From contig OZ243938.1 in assembly GCA_965214095.1 (NCBI GenBank), positions 1,760,001 through 1,824,000 on the forward strand: a stretch of DNA of 64,000 nt, read 5' to 3'. A program made the translations under genes and the position numbers. The notes below the pieces were generated by a model that was not told the origin of the DNA, did no database searches, and saw only the letters and a list, made by a program, of their open reading frames with translations. Shown here piece after piece: positions 1 to 22,030 of this stretch. The DNA comes from Candidatus Poribacteria bacterium. Lineage in GTDB: Bacteria; Poribacteria; WGA-4E; WGA-3G. How positions within the stretch are numbered: the stretch's first letter is position 1; every line of letters starts with the position of its first letter.

Positions 1-2251
1 TGCAGGAGCATCGTTTGAACGTTCCACTTTTGACATTAGAGATGGTGTATCTGTATCAGGCATAACAAGCGTGACAATCCCGTGGCACGACCCGGATAGA
101 GAAAGTGATATAGAAATCACGCTTGAACTTGAATTTGCTGGCACGGATTTTGATACCGATGCCACGCTTACCTTCACCGTGGAAGCAAGTGCTATCGCAG
201 GATACAATGGAAACGCGCTCACTGCAACACTACCTGTCACTGCCATTGAGGAATCCCTGACCGCATCAACAGAGGCACCCTTAACAGAGGCAAACTTGGA
301 CGGCAGCATCGTCACACTTACACTCAGCGGTGGCACGTACGAGCAGTGGATCAGCAGCTCTGCTGTGACATTCTCCGGCATTGAGGGTGTTACTTTTGAC
401 AGATGGGATGTTGAGCGTATCAGCGACACGGAGGTGACAATTGAACTTGAATTTGCTGGCACGGATTTTGATACCGATGCCACGCTTACCTTCACCGTGG
501 GAGCAAGTGCTATCGCAGGATACAATGGAAACGCGCTCACTGCAACACTACCTGTCACTGCCATTGAGGAATCCCTGACCGCATCAACAGAGGCACCCTT
601 AACAGAGGCAAACTTGGACGGCAGCATCGTCACACTTACACTCAGCGGTGGCACGTACGAGCAGTGGATCAGCAGCTCTGCTGTGACATTCTCCGGCATT
701 GAGGGTGTCACAGTTAGGCGTTTCTCCCGTCCTGATCGCGTCAGCGATACCGAAATGACAATTGAACTGAGATTCTCTGGCAACATAGATATAGATACAA
801 ATCTTGTCTTTACAGTAGGAGCAAAGGCAATAAAAGAATACAATGGAGATCCTCTCATTGCGACACTACCTGTCACTGCCATTGAGGAATCCCTGACCGC
901 ATCAACGGAGGCACCCTTGACAGAGGCAACGCTGGACGGCAGCATTGTCACACTTACACTCAGCGGGAGGCGGTTTGTTGATAGCGAATGGCAAATCGGA
1001 CACGCAATATCAGTCTCCGGTATAGACGGTGCCACTTTTGTACGGTGGTATGTGGACCGTATAAGCGACACAGAAGTGATAGTTCCGCTTAATTTTGATG
1101 GCACTGACTTTGATACCGATGCAACGCTGACCTTTACCGTCGGAGCAGACGCAATCACAGGTTACAATAAGGATATCACTGCCGAAGTCCCCATCACTGC
1201 GATTCAGCAATCGAACGCCAGTGTGAGTATTTCGCCCGCATCGATTATATCTCCTGATGTCGGAAAGCCTCTCACACTCAATCTCAACATTGCAGGCGGA
1301 GAAAATGTCGTAGGCTATCAGGCAACTATATCCTTTAGAGCTACCGCGATCAATTATATGAGAAGTACCAACGGCAACTATCTACCAGCAGACGCGTTCT
1401 TTATGCCCCCGGTTGTCAATATAGGACGTTGGGAAGGAAGTGTGACACTTGCCGCGAGCACATTCGCAGAGCCAAGTAATGGTGACGGCACACTTGCCAC
1501 TCTCACGTTTGTGGTTGAAGACTTTAAAGCCTCTACGTTGACGCTATCCGATGTCTACCTTGTAGATACAGAGGGGAAACGTTGGGAAGTTACAACAGAA
1601 AGTGCGGAAGTGACGATACCGCCAGAACCCGAAAATGCAATCTTGGGTGATATCAACCGTGATGGTGTGGTCAACATCCAAGATTTAGTTATTGTTAACG
1701 TCCGTTTCGGTCAGACAGGCATAAATAGTGCGGATATCAACGGTGATTATATCGTCAACATCATTGATCTCGTCTTGGTTGCTGGGGCATTCGGAAACGG
1801 GGTTGCTGCCCCCGCTCTGTCCCCGCAATCTTTAGAGATGCTTACCGCAGCAGACATCCAACGGTGGCTCTCCCAAGCACAGCAATTACAACTTACAGAC
1901 TCAATGTCGCTAAGAGGTATTCTCTTTTTACAACAACTCCTTGCAGCGTTGATTCCCGAAGAAAGTGCGCTTTTACCGAACTATCCGAATCCGTTCAATC
2001 CAGAGACGTGGATACCGTATCGGCTGTCCAAACCTGCGGATGTTACACTCACTATCTACGCAGTAGACGGGCAAATTGTCCGGCGATTGGCACTCGGACA
2101 TCAACCTGCGGGCATCTATCAAAGCCGTTCCCGGGCAGCGCATTGGGATGGTAAAAACGCATTCGGTGAATCTGTGGCGAGTGGAATCTATTTCTATACG
2201 CTTACTGCAGGTGATTTTTCTGCAACACGCAGAATGTTAATAATGAAGTAA
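1..2251 (+). CDS. 5'-partial secreted modular surface protein: >=4 'TEATL' ~105-aa repeats + cohesin-like + dockerin + FlgD-Ig/T9SS-A-like C-terminal domain
   Basis: Frame is open from nt 2 (AGASFERSTFDIRDG...), so the gene starts before the window. Repeats LTASTEAPLTEAxLDGSIVTLTLSG; cohesin-like segment ending GDGTLATLTF; paired EF-hand-like dockerin GDINRDGVVNIQDL/ADINGDYIVNIIDL; tail NYPNPFNPETWIPY...SGIYFY...RRMLIMK. Confidence 0.85.
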   Translation, partial: AGASFERSTFDIRDGVSVSGITSVTIPWHDPDRESDIEITLELEFAGTDFDTDATLTFTVEASAIAGYNGNALTATLPVTAIEESLTASTEAPLTEANLDGSIVTLTLSGGTYEQWISSSAVTFSGIEGVTFDRWDVERISDTEVTIELEFAGTDFDTDATLTFTVGASAIAGYNGNALTATLPVTAIEESLTASTEAPLTEANLDGSIVTLTLSGGTYEQWISSSAVTFSGIEGVTVRRFSRPDRVSDTEMTIELRFSGNIDIDTNLVFTVGAKAIKEYNGDPLIATLPVTAIEESLTASTEAPLTEATLDGSIVTLTLSGRRFVDSEWQIGHAISVSGIDGATFVRWYVDRISDTEVIVPLNFDGTDFDTDATLTFTVGADAITGYNKDITAEVPITAIQQSNASVSISPASIISPDVGKPLTLNLNIAGGENVVGYQATISFRATAINYMRSTNGNYLPADAFFMPPVVNIGRWEGSVTLAASTFAEPSNGDGTLATLTFVVEDFKASTLTLSDVYLVDTEGKRWEVTTESAEVTIPPEPENAILGDINRDGVVNIQDLVIVNVRFGQTGINSADINGDYIVNIIDLVLVAGAFGNGVAAPALSPQSLEMLTAADIQRWLSQAQQLQLTDSMSLRGILFLQQLLAALIPEESALLPNYPNPFNPETWIPYRLSKPADVTLTIYAVDGQIVRRLALGHQPAGIYQSRSRAAHWDGKNAFGESVASGIYFYTLTAGDFSATRRMLIMK

Positions 2252-2287
2252 TGTACTTGTAGTTGCGCAATTAATAAGGAGTATTTT

Positions 2288-5200
2288 ATGAACACACGGG
2301 GTTCTAAAGCAAAAGGTATTGTATTCATTCTGGTCACAATTTTGATGGTTACCTTTGGAACACAAAGCATCAGTTACGGACAGGAAGCAAACCCAACCAT
2401 CACAGTTTCTGTTGAAGCACCACTGACAGAAGCAACACTACATGAAAGCGTCATCACACTCACTCTCAGCGGCGGACGGTTTACCGATAGGGAATGGGAT
2501 ATTAGGGATGCATTGACGATATCTGGTATTGAAGGTATCACGATTGTCAGGTGGCCTTTTTTAAATCGCGTGAGTGCCACGGAGGTGACCGTTCCATTGA
2601 TATTTGATGGCAACATAGACACCGATGCCACCCTTACTGTCACCGTGGGGGCAGGCGCAATCGTAGATTACAATGGAAACGCGCTTACTGCAACACTACC
2701 TGTCACAGCCGTTGAGGAATCGCTGGAGGCATCAACGGAGGCACCCTTGACAGAGGCAACACTGCACGGAAGTACAATCACACTCACACTCACCGGGAGA
2801 CGGTTTGTTGATGAATGGTATATCGACGACGCTTTGTCACTCTCCGGTATTGAAGGAGTTACTGTTAGTAGTAGTTACCCCGGTGTGGAGCGTGTCAGCG
2901 ACACGGTGGCGACCGTTTATCTTGCATTCTCCGGCAACATAGACACCGATGCCACCCTCACCCTCACTGTCGGTCCGGATGCCATAGTAGGCGGATACGA
3001 TAAAGCCTTTACTTTTCAATTCCCTGTCACAGCAGTTGAGGAATCGCTGGAGGCATCAACGGAAGCACCTTTGACAGAGGCAATGCTGAATGGAGGCATC
3101 AACGTAGCCCTCTCTCTCACCGGACGGCGGTTTACCGATAGGGAATGGGGTATTGAACGCGCGTTGTCTGTCTCTGGCATTGAGGGTGTTACTGTTGGAC
3201 AGAGATTTAGGGATGTGGAGCGTGTGAGCGACACGGAAGTGAAGGTTAGGTTGACCTTCTCTGGTAACATTGACGAGGATGCCACCCTCACCCTCACCGT
3301 CGGTGCCGAGGCCATCGCAGGCTACGATAAAGCCTTTACTTTTCAATTCCCTGTCACAGCAGTTGAGGAATCGCTGGAGGCATCAACGGAGGCACCCTTG
3401 ACAGAGGCAATGCTGAACGGAGGCATCATCACACTCAAACTCACCGGGAGGCGGTTTGTTGATGAATATTATATCAGACGCGCGTTGTCACTCTCCGGCA
3501 TTGAAGGTGTTACTCTTGCTGAGTACGATGCTGTCCAACGTGTGAACGGCACGGTAGCAATTATTGAGCTTGAATTTGCCGGCAACATTGACGAGGATGC
3601 CACTCTCACCCTCACCGTGGATGCCGATGCCATAGGCTATGATAAAGATTTTACCTTTCAACTCCCAGTCACAGCCGTTGAGGAATCACTGGAGACATCA
3701 ACGGAGGCACCCTTGACAGAGGCAATGCTGAACGGGGGCATCATCACACTCAAACTCACCGGGAGGCGGTTTGTTGATGAATATTATATCAGACGCGCGT
3801 TGTCACTCTCCGGCATTGAAGGTGTTACTCTTGCTGAGTACGATGCTGTCCAACGCGTGAGCGACACGGTAGCAATTATTGAGCTTGAATTTGTCGGCAA
3901 CATTGACGAGGATGCCACCCTCACCCTCACCGTCGGTCTGGAGGCCATGGGATACAATAAAGCCTTTACCTTTCAACTCCCAGTCACAGCCGTTGAGGAA
4001 TCACTGACCGCATCAACGGAGTTTCCCTTGACAGAAGCGACGCTGGATGGCAGTACTATCACCTTCTCACTCAGCGGACGGCGGTTTGCTGATAGAGAGT
4101 ATGACCAAGAAGATGATTTGTCAGTCTCCGGCATTGACGGAGTTAGAGTAGTCTATAGTGAGCGCGTGAGCGATACAGAGATAGCAGTTTGGCTCAGATT
4201 TGATAGCACTGACTTTGATACCGATGCTACGCTTACCTTTACTGTCGGGGCAAGTGTGGCAAACTATAATAAGCCGTTCACTGCTCAAGTTCCCGTTACC
4301 GCGATACAGAATACAAACGCCACTGTGAGCATATCTCCTTCACAAGTCATTTCTCCGAATATCGGAGAACCGCTCACACTCAATCTCAATATCATTGGTG
4401 GAAAAAACATTGCCGGCTATCAGGCAACCGTGTTGTTTGATGATTCTACCCTTGAATATATAGAAAGTGCCAACGGCGACTACCTACCAGTGGACGCGTT
4501 CTTTTTAACAAACTACTATAGTTGGAACGATGATGAGGTGACGCTGACCGCGAGCACACTCACTGAGGCGGCGAATGGTGATGGGACACTTGCCACCCTC
4601 ACATTTGAGGTCGTCGACTTTAAGCCATCCACGGTGACCCTATCCGAAGTTTATCTTGTAGATGCAAATGGAAAACGTTGGGAAGTTACGACGGAAAATG
4701 GGGCAGTGACAATACCACCAGAACCCGAGAATGCAATCTTGGGGGATCTCAACCGAGATGGCGTGGTCAACATCCAAGATTTGGTTATTGTCAGCGTCCA
4801 TTTCGGACAGAGGGGGCAAAACAGCGCGGATGTCAACGGTGATCATCTGGTAGATATTGTTGACCTTGTCCTCGTGGCAAGTGCAGTTAACGCAGCAGCT
4901 GCACCACCGTTGAATCCACAGGCTTTGAAATCGCTCACCGCAGGTGATGTTCAAAGTTGGCTTTCCCAAGCACGACAATTAACATTTACTGATCTTGCAT
5001 ACCTACGCGGAATTACCGTGCTGGAACAACTCCTAAAAACGTTGACACCGAAAAAGACCATACTATTGCCTAATTATCCCAATCCATTCAATCCGGAAAC
5101 ATGGATACCGTATCATTTATCCAACGATGTAGACGTGCAGATATCCATTTACAATACCAAAGGTGTGTTAGTACGTCAATTGGATTTAGGGCATCGGATG

Positions 5201-5344
5201 GCTGGCTACTATATAGATCGGACAAAAGCAGCATATTGGGATGGTAAAAACGAGTTCGGTGAGCAGGTGGCAAGCGGCGTGTATTTCTACCACTTGTCCG
5301 CCGGAAAATATTCCGCTACGCGGAAAATGTTAATTCTGAAGTAA
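2288..5344 (+). CDS. secreted protein: signal peptide + 6 'TEATL' repeats + cohesin-like + dockerin + T9SS-A-like CTD
   Basis: RBS AAGGAG before ATG, hydrophobic N-terminus, six ~105-aa repeats, same C-terminal cassette as the previous gene. Confidence 0.88.
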   Translation: MNTRGSKAKGIVFILVTILMVTFGTQSISYGQEANPTITVSVEAPLTEATLHESVITLTLSGGRFTDREWDIRDALTISGIEGITIVRWPFLNRVSATEVTVPLIFDGNIDTDATLTVTVGAGAIVDYNGNALTATLPVTAVEESLEASTEAPLTEATLHGSTITLTLTGRRFVDEWYIDDALSLSGIEGVTVSSSYPGVERVSDTVATVYLAFSGNIDTDATLTLTVGPDAIVGGYDKAFTFQFPVTAVEESLEASTEAPLTEAMLNGGINVALSLTGRRFTDREWGIERALSVSGIEGVTVGQRFRDVERVSDTEVKVRLTFSGNIDEDATLTLTVGAEAIAGYDKAFTFQFPVTAVEESLEASTEAPLTEAMLNGGIITLKLTGRRFVDEYYIRRALSLSGIEGVTLAEYDAVQRVNGTVAIIELEFAGNIDEDATLTLTVDADAIGYDKDFTFQLPVTAVEESLETSTEAPLTEAMLNGGIITLKLTGRRFVDEYYIRRALSLSGIEGVTLAEYDAVQRVSDTVAIIELEFVGNIDEDATLTLTVGLEAMGYNKAFTFQLPVTAVEESLTASTEFPLTEATLDGSTITFSLSGRRFADREYDQEDDLSVSGIDGVRVVYSERVSDTEIAVWLRFDSTDFDTDATLTFTVGASVANYNKPFTAQVPVTAIQNTNATVSISPSQVISPNIGEPLTLNLNIIGGKNIAGYQATVLFDDSTLEYIESANGDYLPVDAFFLTNYYSWNDDEVTLTASTLTEAANGDGTLATLTFEVVDFKPSTVTLSEVYLVDANGKRWEVTTENGAVTIPPEPENAILGDLNRDGVVNIQDLVIVSVHFGQRGQNSADVNGDHLVDIVDLVLVASAVNAAAAPPLNPQALKSLTAGDVQSWLSQARQLTFTDLAYLRGITVLEQLLKTLTPKKTILLPNYPNPFNPETWIPYHLSNDVDVQISIYNTKGVLVRQLDLGHRMAGYYIDRTKAAYWDGKNEFGEQVASGVYFYHLSAGKYSATRKMLILK

Positions 5345-5364
5345 TTCAAAGGAGACTGAACCTT

Positions 5365-7785
5365 ATGAAAAGAAGAACCTTTTCCATTTTAATCACACTT
5401 ATTTTTTTAACCATCGGTTTACAAACCATTCCCGCGCAAGTCATCTTTGAACATGGTGATAGTGTTCTTTCAGTGGCGTTTTCGCCGGTGGACAATACAC
5501 TGCTTGCTTCAGGATCATCAGATGGCACGGTCAAACTATGGAATGTAGAGACCCAAACAGAAATCGCGACACTTGAGGGACATACCGCTTGGATAATGTC
5601 TATCGCTTTTTCACCCAACGGCATGTTGCTTGCTTCCGGGGCACCAGATGGGACGGTGAAACTATGGGATGTGAATACGCACACAAATATCACTACACTT
5701 GAATGGCATGCAAAGGCGGTTTCTTCAGTAGCGTTTTCACCAGATGGCACAACCCTCGCCGCCGGGGCATCAGATGGGACTATCAAGTTATGGGATGTAG
5801 AGACGCATCAAAATACCGCTACATTTGGCGGTTACGATGATGCTACCGTGGATGCTCTAGTTGCCATAGAGAATCAGAGAAATTGGTGGACACCTGTGTC
5901 GTTTTTGTCCAATACAACTCTCGCCGCTGGGTCAGGGGATAGGATCAAGTTGTGGGATATTACGACTGAAGAAAATATCAAGACCTTTGAGGTGCCTGGA
6001 GACCTTGTCATTTCTATGTCGTGTTCGCCGGATGGCACAACCCTCGCCGCCGGAACAATTAATAATCTCATCAGGTTATGGGATGTTGCGACCGGTACAA
6101 ATACTACCACCTTTCCATCAGTAGCAGCGCGTCGTGTATGGTTTCCACTTCCGCCTTTTACTATATCGTTTTCACCCGATGGAGCACAGCTTGCATTTAC
6201 GTCTAACGGTGTGAGACTGTGGAACATTGAAACTGGCACAGAGACGAATTTCCTGATAGGGCACAGGGATTTTATCCGATCTGTATCCTTTTCACCTGAT
6301 GGATCAATACTTGCATCCGGGGCACAGGATGGCACAGTGGGGTTATCGGACCCGTCGTCCGTTGAGACAGGACTTGTCGCATCAACAACGTCTCCATTGA
6401 CAGAAACAACCCTTTATCGAAACTTCGTTACACTCACACTCAACGGTCATCAGTTTGTTGAGAGTGAATCGGATATCGAAGACGCAATTTACGTAATTTG
6501 GGGCTTCGATTTTGACGGTGTTGCTTTTAGACCGAGGGTTGTGTATCGCATTAGTGACACGGAAGTGGCAATTCAACTTGCATTAGATGTCGCCGACTTT
6601 GACACCGATGCAAGGTTTACCATCATCGTGGACGGCGACGCAATAGTAAGTCCCGGTCCTGATTTCATTGTCCCTGGCTTCTCTGTACAAGTTCCTGTCC
6701 GTGCGACACCGGAATCGAACGCTACCGTGAGCATTACCCCGTCGACGGTTGTCCCCCCTGCTGTCGGAGAGGCGTTAACATTCAGTCTCAATATTGCAGG
6801 CGGAGAAAACGTCGTGGGCTATCAAGCAACCGTATTATTTGATCCAACCGCGCTCGACTATGTGAGAAGTGACAATAGCGACTACCTATTAGCGGACACG
6901 TTCATTGCGAATCCAGTTGTCGATTACTACTGGATAGAAGAAACGTACTTTGATGAAGGACGTCCGGAAGGCAGTGTGACACTTGCCGCAAACACACTCG
7001 CTGGTGCAGCAAACGGGGACGGTACACTTGCTACCCTCACATTCAAAGGTGTTGACTTTAAAGCATCCACGGTGACTTTAGGCCAATTCTATCTCGTAGA
7101 TACGGCAGGAAAACTTTGGGAAGCTACTATTGAAAATGCTGAGATAATTTTGCCACCAGAACCTGCAAAAAAAATCTTGGGGGATCTCAACCGCGATGGT
7201 GTCGTGAACATTCAAGATTTGGCAATCGTTGGTGCCCATCTCGGTCGGAGAGGACACAACAGTGCGGATATTAACGGTGATGGTCTCGTGGATATCGTTG
7301 ATCTTGTCCTCGTGGCAAACGAAATCGGTGCAAATGCAGCTGCACCATCGTTGAATCCACAGATATTGGAACAACTCACCGCCGCGGATGTCAAAAGGTG
7401 GTTAAATCAGGCACGGCAACTATCGCTTACGGATCCGGCATACCTACGCGGTATTACCGTGTTGGAACAACTCCTTATGGCACTAACTCCCAAAGAGACA
7501 GTGCTATTACCAAACTACCCGAATCCGTTCAACCCAGAGACGTGGATACCGTATCACTTGGCGAAGGATGCGGATGTCACACTGCATATCTATGCTGTGA
7601 ACGGCACATTGGTACGGACGTTGACGCTTGGACATCAACCTGCGGGGATGTATCAGAACCGCAGTCGTGCGGCGTATTGGGATGGCAGAAACGAAACGGG
7701 TGAATCTGTGGCAAGTGGTGTGTATTTCTATACATTCACCGCAGGCGATTTCATTGCTACGCGCAAGATGTTGATACGGAAATAA
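5365..7785 (+). CDS. secreted WD40 beta-propeller + one 'TEATL' repeat + cohesin-like + dockerin + T9SS-A-like CTD
   Basis: RBS AAGGAG; ~7 WD40 repeats (GH...SVAFSPDG..LASG..DGTVKLWD); shared C-terminal cassette. Confidence 0.9.
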   Translation: MKRRTFSILITLIFLTIGLQTIPAQVIFEHGDSVLSVAFSPVDNTLLASGSSDGTVKLWNVETQTEIATLEGHTAWIMSIAFSPNGMLLASGAPDGTVKLWDVNTHTNITTLEWHAKAVSSVAFSPDGTTLAAGASDGTIKLWDVETHQNTATFGGYDDATVDALVAIENQRNWWTPVSFLSNTTLAAGSGDRIKLWDITTEENIKTFEVPGDLVISMSCSPDGTTLAAGTINNLIRLWDVATGTNTTTFPSVAARRVWFPLPPFTISFSPDGAQLAFTSNGVRLWNIETGTETNFLIGHRDFIRSVSFSPDGSILASGAQDGTVGLSDPSSVETGLVASTTSPLTETTLYRNFVTLTLNGHQFVESESDIEDAIYVIWGFDFDGVAFRPRVVYRISDTEVAIQLALDVADFDTDARFTIIVDGDAIVSPGPDFIVPGFSVQVPVRATPESNATVSITPSTVVPPAVGEALTFSLNIAGGENVVGYQATVLFDPTALDYVRSDNSDYLLADTFIANPVVDYYWIEETYFDEGRPEGSVTLAANTLAGAANGDGTLATLTFKGVDFKASTVTLGQFYLVDTAGKLWEATIENAEIILPPEPAKKILGDLNRDGVVNIQDLAIVGAHLGRRGHNSADINGDGLVDIVDLVLVANEIGANAAAPSLNPQILEQLTAADVKRWLNQARQLSLTDPAYLRGITVLEQLLMALTPKETVLLPNYPNPFNPETWIPYHLAKDADVTLHIYAVNGTLVRTLTLGHQPAGMYQNRSRAAYWDGRNETGESVASGVYFYTFTAGDFIATRKMLIRK

Positions 7786-7803
7786 ACCTTATCAACTAAA
7801 CAC

Positions 7804-7829
7804 GGAAGGGTGGAAGATAACACCCTTCC
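7804..7829 (+). terminator. stem-loop downstream of CTD gene (near-identical copy at 15981-16008)
   Basis: GGAAGGGTG-gaagataa-CACCCTTCC 9-bp stem; no strong U-tract, so it may be an mRNA stabiliser instead. Confidence 0.5.
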
Positions 7830-7879
7830 CTTCAATAATCTGACTGCACATAGCGATAGAAATTAATCAAAAGGAGATT

Positions 7880-10800
7880 ATGATGAAAACGGTATTCGGA
7901 AAACAAAAAAATCTTATTTCTATTTTAGTGACCTGTTTGATAATGTTAATGCTGCACGTCACGAGTTTTGATGCGGCACCCGCTGCAGGTGGTATCTGTC
8001 AAGTTGGGGATACTATTGCCCCTGGTGAGAGTTGCACTTACCCCGACACCACTACGGAGTTTTCTGTCAACGCAAGCGGAACTGGACAATTCTTATTCTT
8101 GAGTGCTGCCAATAACCTCAACCTTGAAGACACAACAATTAATGGTGTGACCTATACGTTTGTTGCTAAGAAACTCGCCAGTGGCTCATGGAAAATAGAA
8201 CAGATCGGGACAGATCCTGGAACAACGAACACTGCGCCTGTATTTACTGATGGCACCAGCACGACGCGTTCTGTAGCAGAAAACACTGCAGCGAATACAA
8301 ATATCGGCACGGCTATCGCTGCCACAGATGCGGATAACGATACGCTCACCTATACCCTCGGTGGCACGGATGCGGCATCGTTTGGCATTGTCAGCACATC
8401 TGGACAACTGCAAACAAAAGCAGCCTTAGATTATGAAACCAAAACATCTTATTCCGTAACAATCACCGTTTCTGATGGGAATAGCGGCAGCGATAGTATT
8501 ACCGTCACCATCAACGTCACAGATGTGAATGAAACGATCATCATATCGAGTCGGTTTGTGCCAGTTGCTGATCGCACCCTGGAGGTGCGCGATGCTATCG
8601 TTGCAGCGGTACCCAACGTGACAGATGCTGCGAAAGTTACCAAAGCACAAGTTGCCGCTATCACAAGCCTCAATTTACGAAATGCGGGCATTATCGCACT
8701 AAAAGCAGGCGATTTCTCGGGTATGACCGCGCTCACCTCACTCAATCTATACAACAATCAACTGAGTAGCTTGCCGAATAGGATTTTTGAAGGGCTAACA
8801 TCGCTAACAACAGTGCGATTAGGCAGAAACGCTGTTGATCCGTTACCGTTTATCGTATCGTTGGAAAAAGTTGCTGATGGTGAGTTCAAAGCGGTAGCCC
8901 CTGCGGTTGCGCTGTTCAACATCGTCCTACCGATTACTGTAACAAATGGAAGTGTCACAGGTGGTGCGACCACGGTCACCATTCCGCGCGGTAGTATGGT
9001 GAGTGACACACTTGCGGTCACCCGTACCGCTGGCACAACAGCACATGTCACCGTGGATATTGAGGCATTCCCCAATCTGCCGCACAATCATTACGGGTAT
9101 ACACTTGCCAAATCTGGTAACCTACCACTGATTATCATCCGTGGCACCAATACGGCACCCGTGTTTACGAATGGCACCAGCACGACGCGTTCTGTAGCAG
9201 AAAATACCGCATCCAACACGAATATCGGTTCTCCTGTATCAGCAACAGATGCTGACCGCGATACCCTCACATATCGCCTCGGTGGCATAGATGCATCCAC
9301 GTTCAACATCGTCAGCACATCTGGGCAACTGCAAACAAAAGCAGCCTTAGACTATGAGACCAAGATATCCTATTCTGTTACCGTCTCTGTCTTTGATGGC
9401 AACGGTGGCAGTAATAGTATCGCTGTGAGGATCAATGTCACCGATGTCCGAGAGAACAGCGCGCCTGTGTTCACGGAAGGCAGCACTGCTACCCGTTCTG
9501 TAGCAGAGAATACCGCAGCGGGACAACACATCGGCACGGCGGTGGCTGCCACGGATGCAGATGGCAACACCTTAGCATATACACTCGGTGGCACAGATGC
9601 TGCCTCATTTGGTATTGACAGAACCACTGGACACCTCAAAACCAAAGCCTCGCTTGACTATGAAACCAAAACCACCTATACCGTGACTATCACCGTTTCC
9701 GATGGAACACTGACAGATACGATCACTGTTACCATTAACGTTACCGATATAACTGAGAACCGCGCGCCTGTGTTCACGGAAAGCAGCACTGCTACCCGTT
9801 CTGTAGCAGAGAATACCGCAGCGGGACAACACATCGGCACGGCGGTGGCTGCCACGGATGCAGATGGCAACACCTTAGCATATACACTCGGTGGCACAGA
9901 TGCTGCCTCATTTGGTATTGACAGAACCACTGGACACCTCAAAACCAAAGCCTCGCTTGACTATGAAACCAAAACCACCTATACCGTGACTATCACCGTT
10001 TCCGATGGAACACTGACAGATACGATCACTGTTACCATTAACGTTACCGATGTTGATGAATCGCTTGATACACCGAGTGAAAGCAGTTATGACCATATAG
10101 AAGGTCCTTGGCTCTGGATGATCGCCGCCGGTGGAAATATAAACACTGATAATCTCTCCGAAGCAAGCGATGGCGTGATTACGGAGGCGCAAATTGCACA
10201 AAACGGTGTTAATGAGGATGATCACTTTAACGAGCTGCAATGGACAAGTGGACGTTTACTTCCAACAACTGTTTGTGGGATTTTCTTATGTTCTTCAGAT
10301 AATGTCATCAACGTCGTCAGAAAGATCGGACTCACCAATAGTAATCAACTCAGTTATTACTCTGCTTATGCCTTTATTAACATTTACTCTCCACGCGATC
10401 AAAACAATGTTTTAATGGGTGTAGGGAGCGATGATTCTATCAAAGTGTGGCTGAATGGTTCAGTTGTTTACAAAAACGATATTTCAAGAAGGACAACAGG
10501 GATCCAAAACCGGTTCCGTGTAAATCTGAATGCCGGTAACAATCTACTGTTCGTTAAAGTTTGCAATCATGGTCTTCCGGGTTTCAATGATGATTGGGGC
10601 ATGTTTTTTAAGATCTACCTTGACACGCAGGATTACACCATATCTCTTCCAATGAAGGATATTGAAAATACTGCCCCGGTGTTTACCGAAGGGAGCAGCA
10701 CCGCCCGTTCTGTGGCAGAGAATACTGTCTCTGGGTTAGGCATCGGCACTGCAGTTTCCGCAACGGATGCTAACAATTACACACTCACCTATAGCCTCGG

Positions 10801-13528
10801 TGGGACAGATGCGGCAGCTTTCAGCATTGATAGAACAACCGGACAGTTAAAAACCAAAACGGCACTGGACTATGAAAGCAAACGTGTCTATCGGGTCACA
10901 ATCACTGTCTCTGATGGTAGTCTCACGGATACCATTACCGTCACTATCAACATCACGGATATAGATGAAACTGTTCCAAACCGCGCGCCTGTGTTCACGG
11001 AAGGCAGCACTGCGACCCGTTCTGTAGCAGAGAATACCGCAGCGGGACAACACATCGGCACGGCAGTGGCTGCCACGGATGCAGACGGCAACACCTTAGC
11101 TTATACTCTCGGTGGAACAGATGCTGTCTCATTTGGTATTGACAGAACCACTGGACACCTCAAAACCAAAGCAGCACTTGACTATGAAACCAAAACCACC
11201 TATACCGTGACTATCACCGTTTCCGATGGAACACTGACAGATACGATCACTGTTATCATCAACGTTACCGATGTTGATGATACACAACAACAACAACAAC
11301 AAATAGCTGCAGTGTGTCAAGTAGGAGATATCCTCGGTCCAGGTGAGAGTTGCACTTACCCCGACACAGATGCTGTTTTTTCTGTGCAAAACGATGGTGA
11401 ATCGAGATGGAATATCCCAAATTTACCACCGTTGCTCCAGTGGATAAACCAAGTCTCTATTGGCGGATCAATGCGTGTTTCCACTACTGTTAACGGTGTG
11501 GATTACCACATCGTTGCTGAACAGACAGGAAGTTCTTGGGAAATCAAAGAGATAGGCGATCAAGGCGTGCAAGAACCAGAAACACCACAATCTAACCCGC
11601 CTGGGACCACGCCTACGTTAACCGCATCCACTTCATCTACTCTGACAGAGGCGACGCTCCATGAAAACGTTGTCACCCTTACACTCAGTAATGGTTCCTA
11701 TGTGAGGTCAATCTTTGATATTCAAGATGCGGTGTCTGTCTCTGGGATAACCGGTGTCTCATACCCGTGGCACGACCCAGACAAAAAGAGCGACACTGAA
11801 CTCTCGCTTAAACTTGAGTTTGATGGAAACATGACCACAGATGGCACACTTACCTTCACCGTTGGGTCGGACGCTATACAAAACTACAGTGGTTCTGCAC
11901 TCACTGCAACAATATCTGTCTCCGCTACCACAGAGTCTATCACTGCTTCAACGTCGTCCGCGTTGACAGAAGCAACATTGGACGGGGCTAAAGTTACGCT
12001 GACACTTAGCGGTCGTAAGTTTGAACGTTCCATCTTTGATATTAGAGATGAAGTGTCTGTCTCTGGAATAACCGGTGTCACATTCCCGTGGCACGACCCA
12101 GACAGAAGCAGCGACACCGTTCTGACACTTAAACTTGAGTTTGATGGAGACATGACCACAAATGGCACCCTTACCTTTACTATCGGTGCGGATGCCATCG
12201 CGGGGTATAAAGGTTCTGATCTCACAGCACAAATCAATGTAACTGCGACTGGAGGCACATCAACACCTACACCCGCTAACAATGCCCCAGTATTCAGTGC
12301 TGGCACAACCGTCACTCGTTCTGTAGCAGAGAACACAGCATCTGGCACAAACATCGGCACGGCGGTATCAGCCACAGATTCAGATAACGATACGCTCACC
12401 TATACGCTCAGTGGTACAGATGCCTCCTCGTTTAGTATTGTTAGCACATCAGGGCAGCTCCAAACCAGCGCAGCGTTAGACTACGAAACGAAAAATACCT
12501 ACTCTGTTACCGTCTCAGTCTCCGATGGCAATGGCGGTAGTGATAGCATTACCGTCACTATCAATATCACAAACATAACTGAAACATCCACGGCAACGCT
12601 AAGCATAACCAGTTCAAGTTCTATCACAGAAGCAACGTTGCATGATGCTGTCATATCTCTGAATCTCAGTGGGTATACCTTTGAACGTGCATTCTGGGAT
12701 CTTGATGATGAGATATCTGTTTCTGGGATTACCGGTGTCAGTTACGACGATTTCTTTGATGTAGACCGCATAAGTAGTACTGAGGTACAGATTGAACTTT
12801 CGTTTGATGGCAATATGACAGAAGATGGAACGTTGACCTTTACTGTGAGTTCGGGTGCTATAGTTAATTATGATGGTTCTGCACTCACTGCAACACTATC
12901 TGTTTCTGCTGTCACAGAGTCCATCACTGCTTCAACGTCGTCCGCATTGACAGAAGCAACGTTGGACGGTACTGAGGTTACGCTGACACTTAGTGGTCGT
13001 AAGTTTGCACGTTCCATCTTTGATATTAGAGATGCGGTGTCTGTCTCTGGGATAACCGGTGTCACATTCCCGTGGCACGACCCAGACAAAAAGAGTGACA
13101 CTGAACTCTCGCTTAAACTCGAGTTTGATGGAGACATGACCACAAATGGCACCCTCACCTTTACTGTCGGTGCGGATGCAATAGCAGGATATAATGGACC
13201 TGATCTCACAGCGCAGGTAACAGTTACCGCAAGCGGCGGGAACGCGCTCGGGGCAAACTTCCCCAACCCGTTCAACCCAGAGACGTGGATACCGTATCAG
13301 TTGTCTAAATTTGCGGATGTCACATTGACGATCTATAATATGCGGGGTGTTGCTGTACGGAAGTTGATGTTGGGACATAAAGCTGCAGGGATATATCAGA
13401 ACCGTTCCCGTGCAGCGTATTGGGATGGTAAAAATGAGTTTGGCGAACCTGTAGCAAGTGGTGTGTATTTCTATATGCTCAAAGCAGGTGACTTCACCGC
13501 TACGCGCAAGATGTTAATACGGAAGTAA
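7880..13528 (+). CDS. giant secreted adhesin-like protein: 2 Cys-motif domains, 7 cadherin-like repeats, short LRR, jelly-roll-like domain, 4 'TEATL' repeats, T9SS-A-like CTD
   Basis: RBS AAGGAG; cadherin motifs NxAPVF..RSVAEN..ATDAD..LDYETK; LRR LTSLNLYNNQLSSLP; GSDDSIKVWLNG domain; tail NFPNPFNPETWIPY. No cohesin or dockerin. Confidence 0.88.
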   Translation: MMKTVFGKQKNLISILVTCLIMLMLHVTSFDAAPAAGGICQVGDTIAPGESCTYPDTTTEFSVNASGTGQFLFLSAANNLNLEDTTINGVTYTFVAKKLASGSWKIEQIGTDPGTTNTAPVFTDGTSTTRSVAENTAANTNIGTAIAATDADNDTLTYTLGGTDAASFGIVSTSGQLQTKAALDYETKTSYSVTITVSDGNSGSDSITVTINVTDVNETIIISSRFVPVADRTLEVRDAIVAAVPNVTDAAKVTKAQVAAITSLNLRNAGIIALKAGDFSGMTALTSLNLYNNQLSSLPNRIFEGLTSLTTVRLGRNAVDPLPFIVSLEKVADGEFKAVAPAVALFNIVLPITVTNGSVTGGATTVTIPRGSMVSDTLAVTRTAGTTAHVTVDIEAFPNLPHNHYGYTLAKSGNLPLIIIRGTNTAPVFTNGTSTTRSVAENTASNTNIGSPVSATDADRDTLTYRLGGIDASTFNIVSTSGQLQTKAALDYETKISYSVTVSVFDGNGGSNSIAVRINVTDVRENSAPVFTEGSTATRSVAENTAAGQHIGTAVAATDADGNTLAYTLGGTDAASFGIDRTTGHLKTKASLDYETKTTYTVTITVSDGTLTDTITVTINVTDITENRAPVFTESSTATRSVAENTAAGQHIGTAVAATDADGNTLAYTLGGTDAASFGIDRTTGHLKTKASLDYETKTTYTVTITVSDGTLTDTITVTINVTDVDESLDTPSESSYDHIEGPWLWMIAAGGNINTDNLSEASDGVITEAQIAQNGVNEDDHFNELQWTSGRLLPTTVCGIFLCSSDNVINVVRKIGLTNSNQLSYYSAYAFINIYSPRDQNNVLMGVGSDDSIKVWLNGSVVYKNDISRRTTGIQNRFRVNLNAGNNLLFVKVCNHGLPGFNDDWGMFFKIYLDTQDYTISLPMKDIENTAPVFTEGSSTARSVAENTVSGLGIGTAVSATDANNYTLTYSLGGTDAAAFSIDRTTGQLKTKTALDYESKRVYRVTITVSDGSLTDTITVTINITDIDETVPNRAPVFTEGSTATRSVAENTAAGQHIGTAVAATDADGNTLAYTLGGTDAVSFGIDRTTGHLKTKAALDYETKTTYTVTITVSDGTLTDTITVIINVTDVDDTQQQQQQIAAVCQVGDILGPGESCTYPDTDAVFSVQNDGESRWNIPNLPPLLQWINQVSIGGSMRVSTTVNGVDYHIVAEQTGSSWEIKEIGDQGVQEPETPQSNPPGTTPTLTASTSSTLTEATLHENVVTLTLSNGSYVRSIFDIQDAVSVSGITGVSYPWHDPDKKSDTELSLKLEFDGNMTTDGTLTFTVGSDAIQNYSGSALTATISVSATTESITASTSSALTEATLDGAKVTLTLSGRKFERSIFDIRDEVSVSGITGVTFPWHDPDRSSDTVLTLKLEFDGDMTTNGTLTFTIGADAIAGYKGSDLTAQINVTATGGTSTPTPANNAPVFSAGTTVTRSVAENTASGTNIGTAVSATDSDNDTLTYTLSGTDASSFSIVSTSGQLQTSAALDYETKNTYSVTVSVSDGNGGSDSITVTINITNITETSTATLSITSSSSITEATLHDAVISLNLSGYTFERAFWDLDDEISVSGITGVSYDDFFDVDRISSTEVQIELSFDGNMTEDGTLTFTVSSGAIVNYDGSALTATLSVSAVTESITASTSSALTEATLDGTEVTLTLSGRKFARSIFDIRDAVSVSGITGVTFPWHDPDKKSDTELSLKLEFDGDMTTNGTLTFTVGADAIAGYNGPDLTAQVTVTASGGNALGANFPNPFNPETWIPYQLSKFADVTLTIYNMRGVAVRKLMLGHKAAGIYQNRSRAAYWDGKNEFGEPVASGVYFYMLKAGDFTATRKMLIRK
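9461..10050 (+). repeat. near-identical 303-bp tandem cadherin-coding repeats (third copy ~10984-11272)
   Basis: GCGCCTGTGTTCACGGAA... begins at 9461 and 9764 (period 303 nt = 101 aa) and is almost identical at DNA level. Confidence 0.9.
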
Positions 13529-13607
13529 ATTTGTCCAAACTCAGGTGGTTTCTGTGTTATTCACACAATCACAGAGACCACCCTCTCACAATAAGGTCAA
13601 AGAACTC

Positions 13608-15884
13608 ATGAAAACAACACTATATCTTACACTCACACTAATCACTTTTGTAACACTTGCATTTGTACCGGGCAGTTTCGCACAAGACGACTCACCCGAA
13701 TATGTTGTGCGGACAATCTACTTTCTTCCAAACGACAGGGAACCTCAACCAGATATAGACACAAAATTGGATACACTAATGAAGGACGCACAGCAATTAT
13801 ATGCCGACGTGATGGAATCCCATGGATTCGACAGAAAAACTTTTCAGCTTGAAACGGATGAGAACAGTAAAGTTATAGTTCATCATGTCAATGGCGAGTC
13901 CAATGATACATATTATCATAATGGAACTTTCAGTAAGGTCATAGATGAACTCAGTCCAAAATTTGATACGTCAAATAACATCTATTTTGTAGCAATAGAT
14001 ATTAGTAGTGAAAAATTTGATGTTGACCGACCCAATAGTCATATATGTGGAATCTCTGGTGGAAAATGGGCAGCTACCCCCGCATCTGGGGTTTGCTTTA
14101 ACTATAGGGTTATTGCTCATGAACTTGGGCATAACTTTGGATTGTCTCATGACAAGATCAACTATTCTTATATTGAGGCAATGATTGATTCTTTATGTAG
14201 TGCTGAGTGGTTAGATGTCCAACCCTATTTCAACGAAGAAAGCCAAACTAATTTCATTGAACCTACAACGGTTAATATGCTGACTCCAAGTCGTGCACCA
14301 TCATCAAACGCCGTTCGATTTAGTTTTGAAGTGCGCGATCCTGATGGACTCCATCAGGCACAATTGTATATACCATTTCTTGATAGTGTAGTTGCTTGTA
14401 AACGATTAAACAGCCAGAGCACCATCGTCGAATTTGACACGACCTATGTGGCATCAGACCTTAACTCTGTGGGCCTTAAAGTTATAGATGTAGACGGAAA
14501 TCACACATATCATCATTTTCAGATTGATATTTCTGAATTCCTACTACCACCTAAAAAGGTAACAATACCGGATGCAACTTTAGCTGCAGCAATCCGAGCA
14601 TACACCCGCCTTCCACCAAATGCAGACATTACAACCGATACAATGGTGCGATTAACAAGATTGTTTAGAATATCAGATGATTTAATAACAGATATCACCG
14701 GTCTTGAACATGCAACCAATTTAATAAGTTTATCTTTATCTCATCCGAATTCTTTATCATCTCACCCGGATGAAATAACGGATTTCTCGGCTTTGAGTGG
14801 ATTAAGAGAACTGAGATCACTGGGGCTTGCTCGCCTTGGTATCTCTGATCTATCTGATTTATCCGTGCTATCAACGTCAACGAAACTGCAAACGCTATAC
14901 CTTCAGAATAATGCTATTAAGGACATATCCGTATTGGCAGGATTAACAAACTTAGAAATATTGGAACTGTGGAATAACAATATCAACAATATCACACCGA
15001 TAGCGGGATTGACCAATTTGACTTACTTAGACCTTAATGGTAATCAAATTAGTGATATCACACCACTCAGAGGATTGACCAATTTGACTTACTTAAGCCT
15101 TAGTAGTAATCGAATTAGTGATATCACACCGCTTACAGAATTAACGAATTTGACTTACTTAAGCCTTAGTAGTAATCGAATTAGTGATATCACACTACTC
15201 ACTAAATTAACGAAATTGCGAAAATTATTCCTTGTTGGAATTAGAATTAGTGACATCACACTAATTTCAGAATTAACGAATTTACGAGAATTAGCACTGG
15301 TGAGTGCTGAAATTAGTGACATCACACCACTTGCAAAGTTGCATAATTTAGAGAGGTTACAACTTCAGGATAATCGAATTAGTGACGTTAGCCCACTTAT
15401 TGAACTCGTAAACCTTAAAGAATTATATCTAATGGACAACCCAATTAAGAACCGAAAACCCCTTCTTGCACTCTTGCGAAAGAATCCAGATATCAAAATC
15501 TATCTCAAAAATAGTCGTGAACCGTTGCCTGTAACCTTATCCCATTTCCGAGCAGAACACACCGAAGCAGGCGTTCTCCTCAAATGGACAACCGAATCTG
15601 AGGTAGACAACGCAGGCTTCTACATCTACCGCAGCAAAACGAAGAATGGCGAGTTCAAGGTCGTCAATCCGACCCTGATACAAGGTGCTGGCACAACGGG
15701 TGAACGCAACGAGTATTCGTGGACAGATACTACTGCTAAACCGAACACTGTCTACTATTATCGGATAGAGGATGTCTCACATGCGGGTGTGCGGGAACAG
15801 TTAGCCACTGTTCGGTTGAGAGGGCTTATATCTGCAAAGGGTAAACTCACGACAAGATGGGCAGATTTGAAAGCAGAGAGATAA
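13608..15884 (+). CDS. secreted zinc metallopeptidase (metzincin motif) + internalin-like LRRs + C-terminal Ig/FN3-like domain ending in KLTTRWADLK
   Basis: Start placed at MKTTLY (signal peptide); HELGHNFGLSH = HExxHxxGxxH; ~11 22-aa LRRs; PLPVTLSHF domain; GKLTTRWADLK tail. Confidence 0.85.
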   Translation: MKTTLYLTLTLITFVTLAFVPGSFAQDDSPEYVVRTIYFLPNDREPQPDIDTKLDTLMKDAQQLYADVMESHGFDRKTFQLETDENSKVIVHHVNGESNDTYYHNGTFSKVIDELSPKFDTSNNIYFVAIDISSEKFDVDRPNSHICGISGGKWAATPASGVCFNYRVIAHELGHNFGLSHDKINYSYIEAMIDSLCSAEWLDVQPYFNEESQTNFIEPTTVNMLTPSRAPSSNAVRFSFEVRDPDGLHQAQLYIPFLDSVVACKRLNSQSTIVEFDTTYVASDLNSVGLKVIDVDGNHTYHHFQIDISEFLLPPKKVTIPDATLAAAIRAYTRLPPNADITTDTMVRLTRLFRISDDLITDITGLEHATNLISLSLSHPNSLSSHPDEITDFSALSGLRELRSLGLARLGISDLSDLSVLSTSTKLQTLYLQNNAIKDISVLAGLTNLEILELWNNNINNITPIAGLTNLTYLDLNGNQISDITPLRGLTNLTYLSLSSNRISDITPLTELTNLTYLSLSSNRISDITLLTKLTKLRKLFLVGIRISDITLISELTNLRELALVSAEISDITPLAKLHNLERLQLQDNRISDVSPLIELVNLKELYLMDNPIKNRKPLLALLRKNPDIKIYLKNSREPLPVTLSHFRAEHTEAGVLLKWTTESEVDNAGFYIYRSKTKNGEFKVVNPTLIQGAGTTGERNEYSWTDTTAKPNTVYYYRIEDVSHAGVREQLATVRLRGLISAKGKLTTRWADLKAER

Positions 15885-16080: not shown

Positions 16081-17574
16081 ATGAAAGTCTTGAAATTTGC
16101 TTGGCTATCTGTTCTATTGTTGATGGTTTTATGTCTCAGTTGCAAACCAGTAGAAACTGGACAGGTGGAATTTGAAAAAATGTTAGAACATCCCGAAGAA
16201 CATTGGTATGACTTGAAAAGGATGGGAATGAAATATGGACACATACGCATATATCTCGAAAAAGTCCAGTATAAAGGAAAGGAAATGATTCGAAGTAGAA
16301 TGGACATAGTGATGCGAACTAATGATTTTGGAAAAGAAACAAAAATTGAGACGAAACGAATTCAGTACTTGGATTCCAATTTTGCGCTTCGCTATTTTGT
16401 ATTTACCTCTAATGCATCTGGAGCGATGCAAGTTGAAGGAACAATTAGAGATAGTGTCGCATACATCACGACAACACTAAATGGTGAAACAACCGAATCA
16501 GAAGTTGCTGTCCCTGATGATACGCTCTCCGATATCGTCGTAGTAAACTATTTGTTATCCAACGGCAAAATGAATATTGGTAAAAAACTCAAATATCACA
16601 AGTTCGATTTAGACCTTTTGCAACCCATTAAAACAGAACTCCTCGTTGTGGAGGAAGCAAGTCTAACGTATCAATCTGAAAAAAAACAGGTCTATATTTT
16701 GGAAGAAAAGATGGACATTCTAGGCGGTATTAACAGTCGCCTGTGGGTTGCCAGTAACGGAATAATGTATAAAGCTGAAACAGATATGTCGGGAGTATCT
16801 ATAGTGATAACGAAAACAGATAGGGAAACAGCACTTGGTGCTGTTGAACTAGTTAATATGTCCTTAGGTAATCGTATCATCCCCACTGGTAAAAAACCGA
16901 AACAGGGAGCATCCAGATTTGTGGCGAATTTACAACTTTCAAAAGGCAGCCTCAAAAATACTATCATGACAAACAGTCGCCAAAAACTTGAATTGAATTC
17001 TGAACGTTCCGGTACTCTTTCTATTGAGATTCCGAAAGTTATGGAAGAAGATTGTGTTAATTTACCGATTGAGAATCCGGAGTTTCAGACTTTTCTTTCG
17101 GCAACTGTATTTATCGAAGCAGCCCATCCGGATATACGTGCAAAAGCAGTTGAAATATTAGATGGGGAAGTAAATTCATGGCGGGCATCAAAAAAGTTAT
17201 GTAAATGGGTTTACAAATCTATTGATCGGAAAGTTGTGAATTCCGGTTGGAGTTCTGCACTAAAAACTCTTGAATCGCTTACCGGAGATAACATAGGAAA
17301 CACTGTCCTACTGATAGCGATGGCACGTTCAGTCGGAATTCCTGCACGCATCTGTTCGGGACTGATATTCTTGGATGGAATATTTTATTATCATATTTGG
17401 CCAGAGGTGTACGTCGGAACATGGATCCAAATGGACCCCGCAGTCGGGCAAATTATCGCTGACCCTCTTCATATACAACTTCATGGAAGCATTTTAGAAT
17501 CTGGCACCATGAATGAATTCACGGAAGGGTCTTTGCGCACTCTGAATCAACTTGAAATTGAAATTGTTGAATGA
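16081..17574 (+). CDS. lipoprotein with transglutaminase-like C-terminal domain lacking the catalytic Cys
   Basis: RBS AAGGAG; lipobox-like LCLSC; TGase-like core GDNIGNTVLLIAMARSVGIPAR...YHIWPEVY...MDP. Confidence 0.8.
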   Translation: MKVLKFAWLSVLLLMVLCLSCKPVETGQVEFEKMLEHPEEHWYDLKRMGMKYGHIRIYLEKVQYKGKEMIRSRMDIVMRTNDFGKETKIETKRIQYLDSNFALRYFVFTSNASGAMQVEGTIRDSVAYITTTLNGETTESEVAVPDDTLSDIVVVNYLLSNGKMNIGKKLKYHKFDLDLLQPIKTELLVVEEASLTYQSEKKQVYILEEKMDILGGINSRLWVASNGIMYKAETDMSGVSIVITKTDRETALGAVELVNMSLGNRIIPTGKKPKQGASRFVANLQLSKGSLKNTIMTNSRQKLELNSERSGTLSIEIPKVMEEDCVNLPIENPEFQTFLSATVFIEAAHPDIRAKAVEILDGEVNSWRASKKLCKWVYKSIDRKVVNSGWSSALKTLESLTGDNIGNTVLLIAMARSVGIPARICSGLIFLDGIFYYHIWPEVYVGTWIQMDPAVGQIIADPLHIQLHGSILESGTMNEFTEGSLRTLNQLEIEIVE

Positions 17575-18225: not shown

Positions 18226-18257
18226 TAATATTACAATATTGTTCAAAGGAGTTACCA

Positions 18258-19018: not shown

Positions 19019-19034
19019 ATATAAGGAGTTAAAA

Positions 19035-19435
19035 ATGTTTAGATTTAGTTATGTATGCTGAATCTTAACGATTCTGATCTGTTGTTTGCCTTCATATCAT
19101 GTGATGAAGCGAAGCAAATGATGGATCCAGTCATGCCGGTTGATGACATGAAGGAAACACCTGAACCGACACCGGCGGTAGAAACGCCTGATCCTCCACC
19201 AGTGGTAGAAACACCTGTAACTGGATTGCAGGAATCAATAATCGCAACTACAACTAACCCGTTGACAGAGGTGACATTGCATGAAAGCGTTGTTACAATC
19301 ACACTCAACAATAGAAGATTTGCAAGTTCTATTTTTGACATTAGAGATGCCGTATCGGTGTCTGGCATTGATGGTGTCACTATACCTTGGCACGAACCTG
19401 AACGAGAAAGTGATACATATGCAATCGATATTTAA
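19035..19435 (+). pseudogene. degraded lipoprotein carrying a truncated 'TEATL' repeat
   Basis: RBS AAGGAG + ATG 19035, TGA at 19059, frameshift into LLFAFISC lipobox, Pro-rich linker, then PLTEVTLHESVVTITL..RRFASSIFDIRD..PWHEP, truncated. Confidence 0.75.
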
Positions 19436-21975: not shown

Positions 21976-22030
21976 TTGTATTCCCTTATTCATTTTAAAT
22001 TTTGACAGGGCATACTTGTATGTTACAACA

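Follow-up and report, generated by a model that had tools for sequence, protein, structure and literature searches.

A repeated domain in four neighbouring genes

The 64,000-nucleotide (nt) stretch of DNA analysed here (the window) is taken from contig OZ243938.1 of a Candidatus Poribacteria bacterium (assembly GCA_965214095.1, positions 1,760,001 to 1,824,000), and its first 13.5 kb hold four genes, all on the same strand, whose products are built in part from a repeat of 106-117 amino acids (aa). With one repeat as the query, phmmer recovered 16 matches among the six-frame open reading frames (ORFs) of the window, at E-values from 7e-68 to 6e-13, and the repeat family therefore lies far above the level of chance. 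The matches comprise 15 repeats in the four genes (three full copies and one cut by the window start in gene 1, six in gene 2, one in gene 3, and four in gene 4, the last ending at 13240) and a truncated gene remnant further downstream; the same search found no copy in gene 5 (13545..15884). An earlier note on this DNA, made by a model from the letters alone, had counted 16 copies in five genes, in agreement with phmmer if the remnant is taken as the fifth gene, and its counts, coordinates, framework motifs, and all of the loop strings that it quoted proved correct in the repeat alignment. The recurrence that it reported of one pair of loop sequences, FDIRD with PWHDP, is likewise seen in the first repeat of gene 1 (g1r1; repeats are named by gene and order), in g4r1 (as FDIQD), g4r2, g4r4, and the remnant. 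The whole genome contains 25 repeat copies at four loci.

1..2251 (ORF from 2), + strand: gene 1, starting 178 nt upstream of the window; signal peptide, four repeats, cohesin, dockerin, type IX secretion system (T9SS) type A sorting domain
(upstream)..253, 248-571, 566-889, 884-1210, + strand: repeats of gene 1
1214-1816, + strand: cohesin-dockerin unit of gene 1
about 1982-2242 (residues 661-747), + strand: sorting domain of gene 1
2288..5344, + strand: gene 2; signal peptide, six tandem repeats, cohesin, dockerin, T9SS type A sorting domain
2390-2719, 2714-3043, 3038-3370, 3365-3685, 3680-4000, 3995-4312, + strand: repeats of gene 2
4316-4909, + strand: cohesin-dockerin unit of gene 2
about 5075-5335, + strand: sorting domain of gene 2
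5365..7785, + strand: gene 3; signal peptide, N-terminal WD40 propeller, one repeat, cohesin, dockerin, sorting domain
6364-6714, + strand: repeat of gene 3
6718-7350, + strand: cohesin-dockerin unit of gene 3
7880..13528, + strand: gene 4 (1882 aa); seven cadherin stretches, leucine-rich repeats (LRR), four repeats, sorting domain
11609-11935, 11930-12256, 12590-12919, 12914-13240, + strand: repeats of gene 4
19055..19435 (short frame 19049..19432), + strand: gene remnant; about 60 residues, then the first 66 residues of a PWH-type repeat, then a stop

The four proteins share a C-terminal match to the T9SS sorting model TIGR04183 (34.5, 34.0, 28.9, and 25.1 bits for genes 1 to 4), in each case above the curated cut-off of 23, and signal-peptide-like N-termini were judged by eye, that of gene 1 resembling that of gene 2. 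In genes 1-3 a cohesin-dockerin unit stands immediately ahead of the sorting tail. The cohesin of gene 2 passes the PF00963 cut-off of 24.1 (31.4 bits) and that of gene 1 falls below it (17.0 bits), the type I dockerins of the same genes score 27.1 and 25.6 bits, respectively, against the PF00404 cut-off of 22.9, and the unit of gene 3 is 63-66% identical to the units of genes 1 and 2. A Pfam domain scan found neither a cohesin nor a dockerin in gene 4, in which the repeats form two pairs with a cadherin domain between them. Across the family, proteins carry 1 to 16 repeats, and in 149 of 265 the last repeat ends no more than 110 residues from the C-terminus and the array is therefore directly ahead of the sorting domain. 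In genes 3 and 4 the array is placed between the anchor and a head (WD40 in gene 3, cadherin and LRR in gene 4), and no recognised head was seen in genes 1 and 2. A three-frame read of 18991-19800 found no continuation of the gene remnant in other frames and no signal peptide. Where relatives carry a public name, it is either 'T9SS type A sorting domain-containing protein [Candidatus Poribacteria bacterium]' or 'hypothetical protein'.

Predicted fold and distribution of the repeat

An AlphaFold2 (AF2) model computed on an alignment of 14 repeats was of high confidence (predicted local distance difference test, pLDDT, 92.3; predicted template modelling score, pTM, 0.84) and contains eight strands (3-8, 21-27, 41-44, 49-51, 58-60, 65-72, 80-86, and 99-106) and two short helices (14-17 and 34-39). 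The model, together with strand pairings among the direct couplings described below (A-B, B-E, D-E, C/C'-F, and F-G), fits an immunoglobulin (Ig)-like fold of the E-set type, a sandwich of two sheets with seven to eight antiparallel strands in a Greek-key arrangement. The best Foldseek match was the second Ig-like domain of the chitinase ChiW (PDB 5gzt/5gzu/5gzv; PF18683), with an E-value of 3e-4, a template modelling score of 0.61, and 18% identity, and a search independent of Foldseek ranked the S-layer protein SbsC first (Z 8.4), then ChiW (Z 8.2 over 102 residues), ahead of many Ig-like domains at Z about 7-8, including those of the invasin, FdeC, and filamin rods. The top entries among the 438 PDB chains with Z>=5 were all Ig-like domains, a Z of about 8 being the generic level for such domains. 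The repeat, about 108 residues long, is thus predicted by modelling to be a previously undescribed domain with an Ig-like beta-sandwich, and the earlier suggestion of such a sandwich is borne out by the model and by the SbsC and ChiW matches. A two-repeat AF2 model built from 126 tandem pairs (pLDDT 94.0, pTM 0.72) places the G strand of one repeat four residues from the A strand of the next and superposes on known tandem Ig rods at a root-mean-square deviation (rmsd) of 7-12 A, its matches otherwise being to single domains.

No named sequence family claims the repeat, which the earlier note could not assign to one either: a profile of 14 repeats had no match among PDB sequences at E up to 10, and a Pfam scan of the 14 single repeats returned no family above its cut-off. 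The sole recurring weak Pfam signal was PF08522 (BT_3987-like_N, which we take to be the former DUF1735), which has precomputed matches on many family proteins and reaches 33.6 bits summed over gene 1 with no stretch passing alone. This assignment was rejected, since single repeats stay below the 25.9-bit cut-off (two of the 14 were listed at E up to 10, the best at 0.074) and a genome search at E 0.01 was empty with a positive Bacteroides control. The ChiW family PF18683 did not appear among the Pfam matches of the 14 repeats even at E up to 10, and a genome search with it gave no match, as was also the case for its control genomes, so that the likeness to ChiW is at the level of fold; in the ESM Atlas, 18% of the members of a neighbouring cluster carry PF18683 (score 0.86). 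Among the papers listed for Poribacteria with type IX secretion, cadherin, or adhesin, none was seen to describe the repeat, and nothing related was found in literature joining Poribacteria, dockerin, and cohesin.

A profile search of 1.84 billion cluster representatives returned 779 at E up to 1e-3 and 280 at 1e-30. Within the phylum Poribacteria the repeat is present in 71 of the 121 genomes sampled, at 1 to 32 matches per genome. The repeat-bearing genomes belong to three families of one order (48/81, 8/9, and 14/19 genomes), and the repeat was found in none of the 11 genomes from five other Poribacteria families. The distribution is patchy even within the genus (18/31 genomes), and one relative is labelled Gemmatimonadota by its source. 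As sampled, the repeat family is almost confined to a single order of Candidatus Poribacteria.

Several giant proteins (P0084, P0091, P0142, P0148, and P0154; 3200-6300 aa) contain 12-26 weak repeat copies. Seven of the 150 listed proteins were scanned: at E up to 0.001, four gave no Pfam family at all, and the families of the other three do not explain the repeat. The scan took in four of the five giant proteins named here, with no Pfam domain assigned to their weak copies. Judged by their sequences, these giant proteins may be more distant kin, and a repeat superfamily may extend beyond the Poribacteria order.

Variability, selection, and recombination in the two loops

Variation along the domain was assessed in 1479 unique near-full-length copies from 265 of 266 proteins, a sample biased toward the best-scoring listed proteins plus the five window proteins. 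Column entropy is highest in two places, namely positions 30, 32-37, and 39-40, with 2.6-3.5 bits, and positions 53-57, with 2.6-3.3 bits, most framework columns staying below 2.3 bits, and gaps reach 17% at position 34 and 5-48% at positions 53-57, so that the focusing of variability in two stretches seen by the earlier note holds family-wide for both entropy and indels. In g2r2 the two stretches map as follows.

2798..2833, + strand: loop 1, model residues 29-40, the connection from strand B to strand C with the short helix 34-39
2867..2884, + strand: loop 2, model residues 52-57, the connection from strand C' to strand D

Loop 2 is the most length-variable stretch of the domain. Aromatic residues make up 16% of loop 1 and 14.7% of loop 2, compared with 3.7% of other loops and 5.2% of strands; all of the Trp of the domain is found in the two loops, and Arg accounts for 16% of loop 1 and <1% elsewhere. 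Loop 1 has anchor positions ([YF]31 at 98% and [IVL]38 at 89%), and across the family most copies follow the consensus R.Y.RS.FDIRDA; the RRFVD-EW variants, rich in Trp, that genes 1 and 2 carry represent a minority class. Loop 1 is therefore less hypervariable than genes 1 and 2 suggest. Outside the loops, the conserved acidic positions E14, D/N75, D77, and D79 may form a Ca2+ site.

The two loops covary. In a mean-field direct-coupling analysis (DCA; effective number of sequences 569), pairs between loop 1 and loop 2 (39-52, 36-54, 35-54, 36-55, and 37-53) formed the commonest inter-segment class among the top 110 couplings, and four such couplings were in the top 50 compared with 0.9 expected (p 0.013), a modest signal that subfamily structure can inflate. 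Further couplings join loop 1 to the N-terminus and to the F-G loop, and loop 2 to the D-E turn. Based on these couplings and the strand pairings, both loops are probably adjacent at the N-terminal pole of the domain, so that the adjacency that the earlier note wished to see tested probably holds. Loop 2 occurs in recurrent types (PWH[DEQ]P, HWFDL, xTFG, DDFF, and short forms), and repeats that share a loop 2 type have a loop 1 identity of 0.50, compared with 0.26 expected from framework identity. The PWH type is found in 40 of the 268 repeats available at the DNA level, from 12 genomes in the bacterial families f1 and f3, and is always paired with an x[YF]xxS[IST]FDI-type loop 1. Overall, loop identity tracks that of the framework: it is 91% where the frameworks are 90-100% identical and 37% where they are 70-80% identical.

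Those 268 repeats, taken genome-wide here and from 20 loci in 17 relatives, were used to estimate ratios of nonsynonymous to synonymous change (dN/dS). Pooled Nei-Gojobori (NG86) counts were applied to 120 disjoint nearest-neighbour pairs chosen by framework distance only, leaving out six pairs at <0.03 framework distance with too few changes. At framework nt distances of 0.03-0.10 (20 pairs), dN/dS was 0.10 in the loops (95% confidence interval, 0.06-0.17) and 0.22 in the framework (0.17-0.26); at 0.10-0.20 (54 pairs) the values were 0.25 and 0.17, and at 0.20-0.30 (40 pairs) 0.34 and 0.19. For the 13 most variable columns, dN/dS was 0.13-0.35 in the majority class and near neutral in the Trp-rich g2-like class (0.84 in seven pairs and 0.62 in six). 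Site counts, based on parsimony changes on FastTree trees of 365 repeats after 13 loci had been added, gave ratios of 0.50 for loop 1, 0.69 for loop 2, and 0.32 for the framework in the g2-like class (84 unique sequences; top site, 1.22 at position 54, p 0.51) and of 0.43, 0.44, and 0.28, respectively, in the other class (279 unique sequences; top site, 0.74). Framework surface sites 10, 69, 71, 92, and 97 of the g2-like class reached 0.87-0.96, and no site among the 84 and 279 repeats had a significant nonsynonymous excess in the parsimony counts. These are counting methods applied to recombining sequences, not likelihood site models, and their results are compatible with weak or episodic positive selection. 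The loops are under ordinary constraint, with no sign of an antibody-like regime.

Nor was a dedicated mutator found. The reverse transcriptase family RVT_1 had no match in the genome (94.5% complete), with controls positive in three genomes. Because RVT_1 is absent and the loops differ in length, a diversity-generating retroelement (DGR), a mechanism that introduces substitutions without length change, is ruled out (a template repeat was not searched for). Contigs from three runs of one study had no differences to window positions 901-2006, 3977-7554, and 12142-13059, and these runs may be the source samples. The short-read contigs of four runs break at the repeats, and their differing letters near contig ends resemble cross-laid paralogues.

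Recombination between repeats is evident within the window. Comparing g1r1 with g1r2, codons 1-70 are 29-60% identical and codons 71-110 are 97-100% identical, while between g1r2 and g1r3 identity is 97-100% over codons 1-50, 41-80% over codons 51-100, and 97% over codons 101-110, such that these two repeats have loop 1 in common and differ in loop 2. The repeats g4r1 and g4r4 are 93-100% identical in codons 41-80 only. These mosaics show that out-of-register duplication and conversion between repeats reassort loops 1 and 2, and at least one loop type is retained while its framework drifts. When DCA was applied to 1182 pairs of adjacent repeats, same-position couplings between neighbours predominated, pointing to concerted evolution, which masks any interface signal. 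Copy number and loops also change between species. The best-scoring loci of relatives are not orthologues of the window genes; at the locus found by synteny, in the closest sampled species (G122, 78% nt identity), the genes hold 2, 5, and 1 repeats compared with 4, 6, and 1 here, many of the loops differing strongly between the syntenic orthologues.

Function of the arrays and their genomic setting

Poribacteria are dominant, uncultured symbionts of sponges, and contact with the sponge is believed to be mediated by the 'eukaryote-like' proteins that they export. The account that we favour, with slightly more belief than doubt, is that an undescribed, lineage-restricted Ig-like repeat forms the stalk or spacer of surface proteins with T9SS-type sorting, and that its loops have diversified without diversifying selection or a mutator. 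Tandem arrays of 1-16 copies would form an extended stalk or spacer in exported surface proteins that carry a T9SS type A tail and binding heads (WD40, cadherin, LRR), a cohesin-dockerin unit, or both. The B-C and C'-D connections would pack together at the N-terminal pole, near the four-residue linker from the preceding repeat. Loop diversity would have three sources, namely constraint looser than in the framework, indels, and out-of-register duplication or gene conversion among neighbouring repeats that reassorts loops 1 and 2, and would not be due to diversifying selection or a targeted mutator. The fold prediction, the distribution, the architectures, the selection regime, and the mosaic repeats are direct results of the analysis, whereas the role as a stalk, display at the surface, and the precise placement of the loops are inferred. 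The pattern of 'hypervariable loops' is accounted for by ordinary loop evolution and repeat recombination, and the repeat is a major unnamed building block of exported Poribacteria proteins that is overlooked by current annotation. Naming the domain would improve the annotation of hundreds of large surface proteins and define constructs for structural and binding work.

Fibrillar adhesin-like surface proteins have stalks of tandem Ig-like domains between a binding head and a cell anchor, an arrangement to which the repeat arrays may correspond. As in the tandem Ig-like stalk domains of invasin and intimin (bacterial Ig-like, Big, domains), FdeC, and SbsC, a beta-sandwich of about 100 residues is set head-to-tail with short linkers (Z 7-8.4), lies between N-terminal heads and a C-terminal anchor in exported proteins, and varies in copy number between orthologues. 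The Poribacteria repeat differs in that neither a Big family nor any other in Pfam matches its sequence, and the two-repeat model superposes on these rods only at the rmsd given above. The anchor, in contrast to Ig-like stalk adhesins, is a T9SS type A sorting domain, and aromatic residues and Arg are abundant both in the B-C connection, with its short helix, and in the C'-D loop. ChiW, which provides the best Foldseek match, differs from the repeat arrays in carrying a single Ig-like domain beside GH18 in a Gram-positive enzyme anchored by S-layer homology (SLH) domains; PMC5132251 finds the closest likeness of the second Ig-like domain of ChiW in a linker domain of a sialidase and suggests that it may stabilise the neighbouring catalytic domain.

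Several observations weigh against a role as a simple stalk. Genes 1 and 2 hold repeats and cohesin-dockerin units only, with no recognised head for a stalk to carry, and the gathering of Trp, Tyr, Phe, and Arg in the loops of an otherwise acidic domain is a binding-site-like composition. Among close relatives, constraint on the loops of the majority class equals or exceeds that on the framework (0.09 vs 0.22, 17 pairs). Finally, the nt identity of g1r1 and g4r4 is highest in the loop blocks (87% and 85%) compared with 37-73% elsewhere, a likeness that a pure spacer would not need and that suggests a specific role of the loops. These points bear on the possibility, which we regard as unlikely though deserving serious attention, that the repeats are lectin-like or other ligand-binding modules, with each loop-pair type (PWH, HWF, xTFG, DDFF, and Trp-rich g2-like) representing one specificity for a glycan or protein of the sponge matrix and the arrays being multivalent and combinatorial. 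The concentration of aromatics and Arg in two adjacent loops, the purifying selection on loops of one type (majority class, 0.09-0.26), the retention of the PWH type with a constant loop 1 pattern in two bacterial families, the elevated loop 1 identity within a loop 2 type, and the lack of another candidate binding module in genes 1 and 2 are all in keeping with such modules. However, the nearest solved folds are linker or S-layer Ig-like domains and not carbohydrate-binding modules, the loops are at the pole facing the preceding repeat over a four-residue linker, where access may be limited, and the nearly neutral variable columns of the g2-like class are a misfit with maintained specificities. 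A further step, in which loop-pair types are discrete binding sites, arrays form a combinatorial multivalent code, and recombination makes new loop pairings, is rather doubtful; if true, it would constitute an adhesin repertoire driven by recombination and not by mutation that recognises sponge-matrix glycans or host proteins.

The earlier note had gone further and read the loops as CDR-like (complementarity-determining region) elements presenting a diversified ligand-binding repertoire. In antibody variable (V) and fibronectin type III (FN3) domains, CDR1, CDR2, and the BC, DE, and FG loops sit at the N-terminal pole, and the variable stretches of the repeat, as B-C and C'-D connections, are assigned to the same pole by strand order; the two loops also hold the highest entropy and nearly all of the indels of the domain, the most variable g2-like columns approach neutrality (0.84 in the seven pairs), and loops differ strongly between the syntenic orthologues of this genome and G122. 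Active diversification against changing targets, by diversifying selection or a mutator, is nevertheless very improbable. Loop dN/dS is 0.10-0.34 and no pooled or per-site value is significantly >1 (the maximum of 1.22 being accompanied by framework surface sites at up to 0.9), the F-G loop is conserved, the variable pole faces the preceding repeat, loop types persist across bacterial families, and no diversification machinery was found, the genome being without a reverse transcriptase and the loop length changes fitting poorly with DGRs. The identity of the contigs of three runs to pieces of the window points the same way, weakly, as the runs may be source samples. Quite improbable, too, is an S-layer-like coat in which the repeats are lattice-forming Ig-like domains, the cohesin-dockerin units cross-links, and the loops lattice contacts. 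It draws on SbsC as the top structural match (Z 8.4), on the presence of cohesin and dockerin in one chain in each of genes 1-3, and on the many more cohesin-dockerin and dockerin-only units in the genome, but Z values near 8 are generic among Ig-like domains, gene 4 has repeats without a cohesin or dockerin, and the patchy occurrence within the genus would be odd for an essential coat.

With respect to export, the sections of Kamke et al. 2014 on poribacterial eukaryote-like proteins report TIGR04183 tails on these proteins and no Por structural genes at that time, a negative that concerned single-cell genomes (PMC3909097). In the present genome, three large ORFs (2153, 2161, and 1752 aa; C1:2636952-2642495, 2779835-2784961, and 3093005-3097372) match the model of the T9SS sortase PorU in colinear pieces (best, 284 bits), a 2196-aa ORF matches the SprA model in five pieces (C1:2570263-2574252), and several ORFs match the PorV model (best, 97.5 bits; C1:1405584-1406567). 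Every one of these scores is under the curated cut-off, and a divergent T9SS may be present in Poribacteria. A profile of the cohesin-dockerin units of genes 1-3 found about 20 more cohesin-containing and >20 dockerin-only matches in the genome (e.g., C1:979927-987072, 4312079-4322311, and 4825273-4836608), which indicates a large, putatively non-cellulosomal cohesin-dockerin system.

Gene 4 contains two further elements. A module of about 75 residues, starting C-Q-V-G-D...P-G-E-S-C-T-Y-P-D-T and without a Pfam match, occurs twice (residues about 40-110 and 1180-1260), each time preceding a block of other domains, with a run of six Gln immediately before the second copy. A stretch of about 190 residues amid the cadherin blocks (residues about 735-930; window about 10080-10670) has no Pfam family at E<=0.01 and may be a candidate binding head. 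Downstream, gene 5 (13545-15884) encodes a secreted metallopeptidase of M12-like type, with the motif HExxHxxGxxH, joined to internalin-like LRRs; it is without a T9SS tail, its C-terminus ending ...KLTTRWADLKAER. The other neighbouring genes are:

16081-17574: transglutaminase-like protein
18162-18833: Cu/Zn superoxide dismutase
21199-22047, - strand: Laminin_G_3 protein

The products of these three neighbours are probably exported, and the region therefore resembles a cell-envelope or surface gene cluster.

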